NCBI GenBank assembly: GCA_963558405.1
Contig: CAUWGC010000005.1
Span: forward strand, 24,596-88,595
Length of the DNA: 64,000 nucleotides
Origin: an uncultured Clostridia bacterium
GTDB lineage: Bacteria > Bacillota > Clostridia > TANB77 > CAG-508
Direction: 5' to 3'
The position numbers were made by a program, and so were the translations under genes. The notes under the pieces are model-generated. The model did no database searches. It worked only from the letters and a program-made list of their open reading frames with translations, and was not told the DNA's origin. Below are positions 53,153 to 55,005 of the stretch, piece by piece. Each line of letters opens with the position of its first letter. Position 1 is the stretch's first letter.

Positions 53153-53398
53153 TTAGAAAGTCGTGCTCAAACGAACGGATAGGTCGTAAATCACATGGAG
53201 GCTGTGCACACAGTCATCACCTAAAGACGCAAGGTACGCATATGCCATATTTTGCAATGTTTCTTTTTCTTCGCTTGATGCATTTGTCATATTTTTCTTT
53301 GCTTCTTTTGATTTTGTAATAATTCCATTATCTCCTACTACCATACTTATTGTTACACCTGCTAGTATTATTAGTACAATTATTGTTATAACCAACGC
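53153..53398 (-). pseudogene. 3' part of a type IV pilin-like gene interrupted by the integrated element
   Basis: Reads ALVITIIVLIILAGVTISMVVGDNGIITKSKEAK, matching the pilin at 35050..36513 from ALVITI onward; the leader and GITL are missing and replaced by the recombinase 3' end. Confidence 0.8.
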
Positions 53399-55005
53399 TG
53401 TAAGTATAAAATGTTACTTTTATTTTCAAAAATATATGGGTCTGTATAACCCTTTAAATAAAAATCAAATTTTCTTGCATTATATATAACAACTTTGTCC
53501 ACTAATTCTCTGCAAACACTTTTACTAAATTTTTTAATGCTTAGGATATTATATACTACCTTCCTAACATTTGCAATAATTTCATCAATATTATCTCTAA
53601 TCTGTTTTTTATCTTCTTGTTCGCTTATTTCCTTATTTATCTTTTTTATCTTATTTTCTAATTCATTGTTTTTAGCTCTATACATCTCCTCGCTTATGAT
53701 TTCTTTAAGGCATAAATCCAGCAATTTATTTTTTTCTTTATTTAATTGTTCTTTTTCTTTAGCTAGTATATCTATTATTTTAGTTTCATTTTCAGATTTT
53801 TTTACAGCACCTTTTATATATTCTTCTATATCTTTTGCAATTTCTTCCTTATTACTTACAATAGCTTGTAATGACTTTGTAAAGCATTCTTTTAATACTT
53901 CATTATTAACTCTATCATTATCACATCCAATTTCTTCATTATTCTTTGTATGTTTTTTTCCATATTTTGTAGCTGTATAGCACCTCCAAGTTTTTCTAAT
54001 AGTTCCGTCTTTCCTTTTTCTGTTTTCTCCTCCAACATAAGATGCACCACAACAAGCACAGACTAATTTACCAGAAAATGTGTGCATATTGGTATATTTG
54101 CTTTTTTCGTGTTTATATAAATTACTTCTTCTTTCTAATTCTTTTTGCGTAGCCTCAAAAGTCTTTTTATCAATTATAGGTTCGTGATGATTTTCTACAT
54201 AAATAAAATCAACTTCTCCCTCATTAACTTTTTTAGTATGCTCTAAAAAATCAGTAGTATATGTAATCCTTTGTTTTAAATCCCCAATGTACTTTACATT
54301 TTGTAAAATATCTAAAATTGTTGCCTCTCTCCAATCTGTAGATTTTTCTTTATTTATAGGTCTTTTAATCTCTATACCTCTTTGTTTTAATATCTTTGCA
54401 ATCGTATATGCTCCTTTTTCCTCAATAAGATACATATTAAATATATCTCGTACTACTTCTGCCTCCTTTTCATTTATAACCAATTTTGTTTTCTTCCCTG
54501 TTATTTCATCTCTAACAAAATCATAACCATATACAATATTTCCAAAAGCAACTCCTTTTTTCATACTTTGAATTACACCAAATTGAGTTCTTTCTGATAT
54601 TCTTCTACTTTCATCTTGAGCCATACCAGCCATAATAGTTAGTCTTAATTCTCCATCAGTATCAAAAGTACTAATATTATCAATTATAAATCTTACTTCA
54701 ATTCCCCATTTTTTTAATTCTCTTGTTTTCTCTAATGTATCAACTGTATTTCTTGCAAACCTACATACTTCCTTAGTCAATATAATATCAAATTTTTTCT
54801 TGCTACCATCTCTATACATTCTATTGAAAGCATTTCTCTTTTTTAATGATGTGCCACTAATTCCCTCATCTGCATATATTTCAACTAATTTCCAGTCCTT
54901 ATGTTGTCCAACAAATTCCTCAAAATACAATCTTTGATTTTCAAGAGAATTTTTTTGATCTTCGTGGTCGGTAGATACACGGCAATATGCCACTACTTTT
55001 TTCAT
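53386..55005 (-). CDS. Large serine recombinase
   Basis: AYCRVSTD, YADEGISGT, KEVCRFARN, AQDESRRISER, zinc ribbon CACCG, coiled coil. Confidence 0.96.
   Translation of the reverse strand: MKKVVAYCRVSTDHEDQKNSLENQRLYFEEFVGQHKDWKLVEIYADEGISGTSLKKRNAFNRMYRDGSKKKFDIILTKEVCRFARNTVDTLEKTRELKKWGIEVRFIIDNISTFDTDGELRLTIMAGMAQDESRRISERTQFGVIQSMKKGVAFGNIVYGYDFVRDEITGKKTKLVINEKEAEVVRDIFNMYLIEEKGAYTIAKILKQRGIEIKRPINKEKSTDWREATILDILQNVKYIGDLKQRITYTTDFLEHTKKVNEGEVDFIYVENHHEPIIDKKTFEATQKELERRSNLYKHEKSKYTNMHTFSGKLVCACCGASYVGGENRKRKDGTIRKTWRCYTATKYGKKHTKNNEEIGCDNDRVNNEVLKECFTKSLQAIVSNKEEIAKDIEEYIKGAVKKSENETKIIDILAKEKEQLNKEKNKLLDLCLKEIISEEMYRAKNNELENKIKKINKEISEQEDKKQIRDNIDEIIANVRKVVYNILSIKKFSKSVCRELVDKVVIYNARKFDFYLKGYTDPYIFENKSNILYLQRWL

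Follow-up and report, generated by a model that had tools for sequence, protein, structure and literature searches.

Among the conjugative transposons and integrative conjugative elements (ICEs) of Clostridia, Tn5397 with TndX and Tn4451 with TnpX are known to be integrated by large serine recombinases, and in Bacillus elements that intervene in a gene, such as skin in sigK and SPbeta in spsM, are excised by large serine recombinases. As tools of genome engineering, serine integrases have found wide use, and the control of their direction is an active structural question. In mycobacteriophages with integration-dependent immunity, attP is said to lie inside the repressor gene, so that the repressor is truncated upon integration, for which a tyrosine integrase is responsible. 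The present work concerns a stretch of 64,000 nucleotides (the window) from an uncultured Clostridia bacterium (genome G000, contig C5, positions 24596-88595), the right end of which is the end of the contig, and an element that begins within it beside a pilin-like coding sequence. The explanation that we consider most probable is that an ICE of about 53 kb was inserted by its own large serine recombinase in the Ala-Leu codons of a pilin-like gene, whereby the open reading frame (ORF) of the recombinase would span attP.

The serine-recombinase conjugative transposons of Clostridia are the nearest known kind. Like Tn5397/TndX and Tn4451/TnpX, the element described here has a large serine recombinase at one end, resides in a Gram-positive anaerobe, appears to use short sites with a 2-nt core and can have more than one target; unlike them, it targets a coding motif of about 30 bp of one protein family, no DUF4368 was reported in its recombinase and the recombinase ORF would run across attP. 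Multi-targeting and gene-family-targeting large serine recombinases were catalogued by Durrant et al. 2022 (PMC10083194), including related recombinases in divergent target gene clusters, a TT core for one multi-targeting enzyme and conserved coding-sequence sites used by diverse recombinases, and the multi-targeting clade was found to be marked by DUF4368 and by more than three clusters of target genes. Many targets are used here too, counted as different sequences and not as clusters at 50% identity like those of that study, and DUF4368 is not reported in the present recombinase. A further gene-intervening element excised by a large serine recombinase is gin in gerE (PMC5595907). With skin, SPbeta and gin the element has in common that it is inserted precisely inside an ORF, which excision would rebuild; it is unlike them in being, by gene content, a self-transmissible element of 53 kb, with a multi-copy target family, a stub as target and no sign of programmed excision.

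Integrase genes that are altered by integration were described as well. In the Myxococcus phage Mx8, attP lies inside the integrase gene and integration creates a new 3' end (PMC6070905), and the archaeal "suicidal" SSV-type integrases split their own gene upon integration, the review in question stating that recombinases which disrupt their own gene are known only from archaea (PMC8371274). Like in Mx8 and the SSV type, integration would change the integrase gene here, so that provirus and free form encode different proteins, with a new 3' end as in Mx8; unlike these tyrosine recombinases, the enzyme is a serine recombinase of a bacterial conjugative element and would lose only about 40 C-terminal residues. 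Integration-dependent immunity in mycobacteriophages (PMC3694055) is similar in that attP resides in coding sequence and integration truncates a protein, which there is the repressor and here the recombinase. In the literature found, including the accessible part of PMC10083194, the supplementary tables of which may list such targets, there was no report of a serine integrase ORF that spans attP, nor of a pilin-like motif as target.

The recombinase ORF of 539 aa ends with CAG CGT TGG TTA TAA at 53400..53386 on the minus strand, and in an overlapping frame, read from 53398, the bases GCG TTG GTT ATA ACA ATA ATT encode ALVITIIVLIILAGVTISMVVGDNGIITK..., the start of a hydrophobic pilin-like segment (ALVITIIV...). 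A reading made earlier from the letters of the window (the sequence-only reading) had described both frames and the occurrence of the motif in an intact paralogue exactly so. A search for the 23-nt string at the junction gave a single occurrence in the window, against an expectation of 0 from 100 shuffles. The gene product shows what defines a large serine recombinase, namely a Resolvase domain (PF00239, residues 4-152, E 1.8e-31), a Recombinase domain (PF07508, E 2.2e-22) and Zn_ribbon_recom (PF13408, E 1.6e-08), whereby the catalytic-domain serine S11 within YCRVST and the zinc-ribbon cysteines C316, C319, C342 and C361 are invariant in an alignment of 45 recombinases; DUF4368 was not reported by Pfam. 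The closest solved chain in a PDB search was 3g13, annotated as the catalytic domain of a "putative conjugative transposon recombinase" (E 2.2e-36).

For orthologous recombinases (71-100% identical, from public genome and metagenome contigs) 29 junctions were compiled, 28 of them distinct, and in 27 of these 28 an Ala-Leu pair and a hydrophobic run follow right after the conserved recombinase 3' end, which rules out a chance overlap of a recombinase end with a pilin-like start; the sole exception is a Big2-like gene. The whole hydrophobic segment (at least 17 residues) is shown in about 22 junctions, a few others being cut short or frameshifted. The target arms are 28 different sequences, and when the bases of the Ala-Leu codons are numbered G1 C2 N3 Y4 T5 N6, only G1, C2 and T5 are invariant or nearly so. 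Among 40 relatives an orthologue was identified only in G008 (75% identity), where the recombinase is directly followed by a pilin-like 3' half and attL carries the leader and GITLIA, attR and attL lying at the same codons as in G000. Eight proteins listed as 100% identical to the window recombinase possess six different C-terminal tails after ...LQR (W, WL, WLSRL, LL, SL or LSSQLLCY), and 98%-identical proteins continue after ...LQH with L, LSLQ, LQLQL or LRLQLLFY. Contigs of four gut sequencing runs (pig, chicken and other animals) match the recombinase with 0-9 differences and follow the window as far as 53394; past this base, starting with 53393, they either end or diverge (three have A for G on the coding strand), giving a break range of 53393-53396. 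Near-identical recombinase genes in different flanks across the four runs are an indirect hint of possible excision and transfer of the element. As near-identical copies sit in different targets, the paralogues are alternative sites, which is what the sequence-only reading had supposed, and the survey of homologous recombinases that it had proposed revealed insertion before Ala-Leu and a hydrophobic run in all but one of the distinct junctions.

Evidence of insertion comes from the far end. A six-frame scan of G000 (1.58 Mb, 34 contigs, 26% G+C) found 15 sites encoding G-(I/V)-T-L-(I/V)-A-L-(V/I)..., of which 13 run on into proteins of 70-588 aa; among the 15 are two orphan 5' halves, at C1:130357 and C8:43287, and the genome also holds two orphan 3' halves, each after a serine recombinase, namely the window junction and C7:11742. 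The 5' half on contig C8 (leader and GITLVAL) reads ...GGTATAACATTAGTTGCACTG and passes into unrelated DNA, GCAATTAGTAGGAAATGTG...; it has the same orientation as the 3' half in the window and breaks at the same Ala-Leu codons at which the latter starts. In the same-genus genome G001, homologues of C8:39893..41274 (83% identity) and of C5:77620..75037 (79%) are found 115 bp apart on one contig, and since the two flanks are adjacent there, about 54 kb was inserted in G000. This insert consists of a broken AbiE pair, the pilin-like gene and, inside the latter, the conjugative element of about 53 kb. As G001 lacks the pilin-like gene and the AbiEi and broken AbiEii genes preceding it too, the target gene is located in an older island. 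Both the claimed insertion into the conserved pilin 5' motif and the missing 5' half sought at the far end are hereby supported.

The two parts of the element are connected by a retroelement reverse transcriptase gene that is cut in two, with positions 8-86 of RVT_1 at the end of C5 and positions 134-204 at the end of C8 on the opposite strand, whereby the repeat cutting the gene is multi-copy. In three metagenome-assembled genomes (MAGs) a single contig contains both attL and attR, at distances of about 54, 45 and 54 kb, which is consistent with 41.1 + 10.6 kb in G000. As judged from these assemblies, the layout of the element is C8:43308..84417, the unassembled repeat and C5:88595..77989, with a total of about 53 kb.

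The position of the crossover could be narrowed down by comparing both ends. In attR, the bases up to the one before the Leu codon are element-type-specific (N3 is G in both window-type copies and A in the other 26 distinct junctions) and from N6 onward, which in the window is 53393, they follow the target; in attL, N3 follows the Ala wobble (A, G or C among almost identical elements) and from position 6 onward the sequence is that of the element. As a consequence, the crossover is confined to Y4-T5. Inverted-repeat arms, ACATTT(T/C)ATACT and AGTAGGAAATGT, were read by eye 16 nt apart with Y4-T5 in their centre. Registers at the GC (positions 1-2), at 3-4 and at 5-6 were rejected on the behaviour of position 3 in attL versus attR, and register 5-6 matches in only one of the six attL/attR pairs.

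Table. Coordinates of features in the window (positions 1-64000; strand as far as assigned).
Feature	Position	Strand	Basis and remarks
ychF, chromosomal flank downstream of the stub	51930..53021	-	ORF; 91% identical in same-genus G001, there 115 bp from the homologue of C8:39893..41274
3' part of interrupted pilin-like gene, truncated stub	53153..53398	-	81 codons, counted from Ala; only the first 57 or so show homology to the family
attR	53365..53425	-	element-side arm ends ...AACATTTTATACTTACAGCG; crossover Y-T at 53395..53394, bases 1 and 2 of the Leu codon; target-side arm from 53393 down
TAA stop of the recombinase	53386..53388	-	in the target-derived arm, 6-8 nt past T at 53394 (last base constant among element copies)
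Large serine recombinase gene, integrated tail-less form, 539 aa	53386..55005	-	right element end, reading outward; ORF and Pfam
Right-hand 10.6 kb of the element, to contig end	53394..64000	.	Pfam
MazF/PemK-like gene	55399..56037		Pfam
Sigma-70 region-4 protein	56654..57151		Pfam
Radical SAM	58522..59757		Pfam
LysR	59916..60815		Pfam
Receiver domain	60861..61337		Pfam
MutS_I fragment	62607..63032		Pfam
bAvd	63025..63387		Pfam
Retroelement reverse transcriptase, N-terminal part	63372..63953		Pfam; remainder at the C8 end
Intact pilin-like paralogue, 487 aa, potential alternative target	35050..36513	-	ORF; N-terminus MKITKREEQMKGITLVALVITIVILLIL...

Both element ends bear on the recombinase protein itself. 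The TAA of the window occupies junction positions 11-13 within the target arm, in G008 the stop TAG is made up of T5 and two target bases, and in the proteins listed the tail always begins with W, L, S or Y, or there is a stop at once, in agreement with a codon that has T5 as its first base. The idea that the recombinase takes its stop codon from the target was therefore correct, the tails differing by target. In the far-end arm, the recombinase frame is open for 40-46 codons in seven of seven attL sites (5 distinct sequences), with 3-7 stops in the other two frames, and the tail of the window type reads HWQLVGNVFDLTKELETHIREPKKRSEYRQVEVNVFLNLAQKS. Between G000 and G008 the tails are 63% identical (E 1e-16), 13 columns are invariant when the tails are aligned, and past the first 30 nt dN/dS amounts to 0.18-0.56 in eight of ten pairs, the other two being saturated. 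An uninterrupted relative of 579 aa, P0120 (44% identical), possesses a tail that is similar and collinear (in one comparison 33% over 36 aa, E 0.001). A complex model of recombinase residues 290-538 with the tail scored 0.63, with 0.00 for the best control; 58 of 80 solved complexes and 2 of 110 mismatched pairs attain this score, counts that are only approximate because own alignments were used. Its runs agree in at least 84% of contacts, the pLDDT of the partner is at least 73, and tail residues 30-39 pair with residues 510-519 (ARKFDFYLKG) and contact 367-389 and 480-484. The model thus supports binding of the tail to the zinc-ribbon region without demonstrating it, and the tail profile had no match in the PDB below E 0.78.

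Taken together, attP would be located in the ORF of the recombinase at its 3' end, with the last conserved residues (...SNILYLQR) encoded by the element-side arm and the frame continuing over the crossover into about 40 codons from the opposite element end (QLVGNVFDL...VEVNVFLNL...). Integration would remove this tail, so that the enzyme ends at the first in-frame stop of the target, 0-8 codons later, here as W-L-stop. The circular form would hence encode a longer recombinase, the tail of which may add a beta-strand to the zinc-ribbon domain, and the tail-less enzyme of the integrated element should remain capable of supporting excision, given that different sites are occupied by near-identical elements. 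The crossover falls, on the sequences compared, within the integrase coding sequence with an altered protein as the consequence of integration, and a serine integrase gene spanning its own attP would be new. As for target choice, the recombinase probably recognises the DNA motif of the conserved N-terminal hydrophobic segment (GITL-V/I-A|L-V/I-IT-II...) and inserts the element at its Ala-Leu codons; this motif is common to the intact paralogues here and to family members in many uncultured gut Clostridia, so that copies of the element sit in many family members and occasionally in unrelated genes. The pilin-like family would be an abundant, redundant landing pad rather than a regulated gene.

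Two other explanations concern the insertion as such. That no insertion took place, and that a leaderless pilin-like gene belonging to the element overlaps the recombinase end, would agree with the presence of the overlap in every copy, but can practically be dismissed, since the downstream sequences are 28 different genes, matching leader halves are found 45-54 kb away on the same contigs and in the relative G001 the flanks are adjacent without any of the insert. The sequence-only reading had suggested a gene-intervening element like skin or SPbeta, the regulated excision of which rebuilds the pilin-like gene and switches the surface protein on under phase or developmental control. The insertion is indeed precise and within an ORF, both halves are in the same codon phase at the crossover, so that excision would restore the frame, in four of ten loci the downstream half stays open over 167-329 codons, and the recombinase belongs to the family that brings about such excision in Bacillus. 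In the other six loci, however, it is short or frameshifted and open for only 13-81 codons, and the copy in the window is the 81-codon stub next to ychF, the frame of which stops 130 nt before that gene. Furthermore, a complete conjugation module is carried by the element, one element type uses many different family members of a multi-copy family, non-pilin targets occur (a ZIP-transporter-like protein, another unrelated ORF and the Big2-like gene) and about 13 intact paralogues remain in the 1.58-Mb genome. Neither the rebuilt empty site nor the circle was found in the contigs of the four runs compared with 52500..55500. One contig joint from 53389 to 53905, with only 21 letters on one side, was judged spurious. 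A regulatory switch of the pilin-like gene in the window, and with it the proposed likeness to a developmental insert, is consequently unlikely.

With regard to the open frame past attP, it was considered that the recombinase naturally ends near the crossover and that the frame is a by-product of a conserved binding arm and regulatory DNA, neither translated nor functional. This agrees with the canonical recombinase domains being complete without the tail, with the overlap of the first tail codons and the binding arm and with the failure to find a close full-length protein in the databases searched; it is not very likely in the light of a frame that five diverged sequences of this AT-rich element keep open over 40-46 codons, of dN/dS below 1 beyond the binding arm, of the similar tail of P0120 and of the complex model as compared with its controls. 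The ICE with a recombinase ORF spanning attP has several observations against it nonetheless. The missing empty site and circle junction count weakly, since contigs, as opposed to raw reads, drop rare forms. All 45 orthologues compared (at least 65% identity; 45 of 120 listed) comprise 526-554 aa, without a close full-length protein of the circle form; a word search for longer proteins with the tail gave no match, and a profile built from six tails matched 9 of 1.84 billion representatives, all of 30-187 aa and none a full-length recombinase, three of them being other ORFs joined in frame to the tail, one of these after a pilin-like leader. The attP form, searched for as a circle-junction pattern, occurs in 0 of 401 genomes of the family, and the first 25-30 nt or so of the tail region double as recombinase binding arm, which explains part of its conservation. 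Between C8 and C5 no end overlap was detected (a contig-end overlap search gave only four k=55 pairs elsewhere), so that their link rests on the split reverse transcriptase and on the adjacent flanks in G001. Finally, attL and attR have the same base at Y4 in only three of six genomes (G008, G042 and G045), and C stands against T in G000 (C8:43304 and window 53395), G041 (L043/L026) and G043 (L046/L030). This difference misfits the identical central dinucleotide of the textbook; it is as expected if unlike cores recombined and the mismatch segregated, and the enzyme, unlike textbook serine integrases, may recombine sites with unlike central dinucleotides (CT against TT).

On top of a recombinase ORF spanning attP, a built-in sensor of the integration state is a tentative possibility. 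The circle would encode a recombinase of about 579 aa, the last 40 or so residues of which dock as beta-strand and helix on the zinc ribbon near the base of the coiled coil, and the integrated copy would be tail-less with a stop supplied by the target, whereby the isoforms might differ in direction (integration versus excision) or in stability. For SPbeta integrase, binding of the directionality factor to the second DNA-binding domain and to the coiled-coil base is described (PMC11722253), and the modelled tail position is near to where this factor acts, which is a lead only. A search with the last 60 residues of P0120 returned only P0120 itself, and the tails of more distant recombinases of relatives (about 30-39% identity, in a set that included the window gene and the G008 orthologue) did not align to the tail.

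The designation "pilin-like" states a likeness and not an established family membership. N_methyl is found in 12-96% of members of the Atlas neighbours of the family (FGE-sulfatase in 14%) and a prepilin peptidase gene is present in the genome (PF01478, E 4.5e-18), which supports the likeness. The label "pilin" of the sequence-only reading went further than this, as PF07963 (N_methyl) scores of 15.3 and 12.1 bits remain below the cut-off of 21.2 and the family motif G|ITL(V/I)A has Ala at +5, where the prepilin methylation motif needs Gly at -1, Phe or Met at +1 and Glu at +5. Several pilin-like proteins of G000 terminate in sequence typical of retroelement variable regions, and one family member has a template repeat about 350 nt downstream.

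By gene content (relaxase, coupling protein and VirB4-type ATPase), by its defined ends and by its absence from G001, the element is classed as an ICE. Its part on C8:43308..84417 encodes ParA, ParB, a 1295-aa protein with 8 SpaA domains (adhesin), two intron-type reverse transcriptases, a relaxase (PF03432, E 4.1e-27), a DUF3801 protein, a TraG/VirD4 coupling protein (PF02534 and PF12696, about 6e-18), a VirB4-like ATPase (PF19044 and PF12846 on a 776-aa protein) and a sortase, together with a pilin-like gene that is a retroelement target and is accompanied by its template repeat. The coupling-protein gene adjoins a frameshifted intron-type reverse transcriptase: at C8:69042..71679 (locus L049:9042..11679) the latter lies in two frames (239 + 370 aa) directly before an ORF of 240 aa that matches the TraG/VirD4 model at positions 150-351 only, and the coupling-protein gene may thus be interrupted. 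A diversity-generating retroelement resides inside the element, in window 62607..63953 and C8:81503..84417 (locus L050), and consists of bAvd, the reverse transcriptase gene cut in two and the pilin-like target gene, which has a variable region and is followed at a distance of about 350 nt by a template repeat; the repeat that splits this gene also terminates contigs C7 and C30. Contig C24 and C5:163..15443 have 65-77% DNA identity to the conjugation and adhesin part, so that the genome holds at least two further related modules. No drug-resistance family was found among the 34 element proteins scanned, which are part of the element ORFs.

Around the recombinase gene and its targets some further observations were made. 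An ORF of 46 aa upstream of the recombinase (55135..55275) had no Pfam match. In an element type of 82% identity (loci L025, L026 and L030, positions 3001..3375) a small resolvase-like gene, 31% identical to the N-terminal domain of the recombinase, lies directly upstream of the large one, in the place where the window has the MazF-like gene and the 46-aa ORF; several MAG loci seemed to have 730 bp inserted in the recombinase gene, which was an artefact of this small gene being merged into the match. P0123, P0124 and P0125 are database ORFs in each of which a host gene passes at attL, without change of frame, into the tail of the recombinase; the host portion is a pilin-like leader in one case, an acidic protein of no relation in another and a membrane protein resembling a ZIP transporter in the third. 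These sequences show non-pilin targets and possible chimeric products. In loci L025 and L027 one additional C, at a position common to both and some 36 nt beyond the junction (after GCN of LILA-G), shifts the frame in two different downstream halves. On the chromosomal side, C8:41469..42917 (locus L004:1469..2917), just upstream of the interrupted pilin-like gene, encodes the antitoxin AbiEi and, in a gene that is split into two ORFs, the toxin AbiEii, a block that is absent from G001. Viral contigs yielded 80 loci that were kept, the best 47% identical and partial, and no recombinase orthologue.

A second large serine recombinase, unrelated to the first (24% identical), is encoded at C7:10046..11760 (locus L003) and is inserted in the same motif of another paralogue. 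Its insertion point lies 8-9 nt further on, in a Thr codon, and the orphan 5' half is found at C1:130333..130420 (locus L001). The arms of this second element, which covers at least 46 kb over two contig ends, form a perfect 21-nt inverted repeat around the centre, with ACA common to attL and attR. Its recombinase orthologues in the 40 relatives were at best 50% identical, this best one being at a contig end, and none was beside a pilin-like half.

A recombinase family whose gene is cut by its own integration would offer two natural isoforms for comparison, and if the state sensor should hold true, a serine integrase would owe part of its directional control to the splitting of its gene, a principle described until now for the tyrosine integrases of Mx8 and of archaea. 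The target variants that occur naturally around a coding motif of about 30 bp number in the dozens and amount to a natural specificity map, and should the C/T difference between attL and attR reflect the reaction itself, it would be a test of the tolerance for non-identical cores. For the microbiology of the gut, a large family of retroelement-diversified, pilin-like surface proteins in Clostridia with small genomes would double as a landing pad for conjugative elements, and as some of these elements carry pilin-like genes themselves, they could insert into each other.

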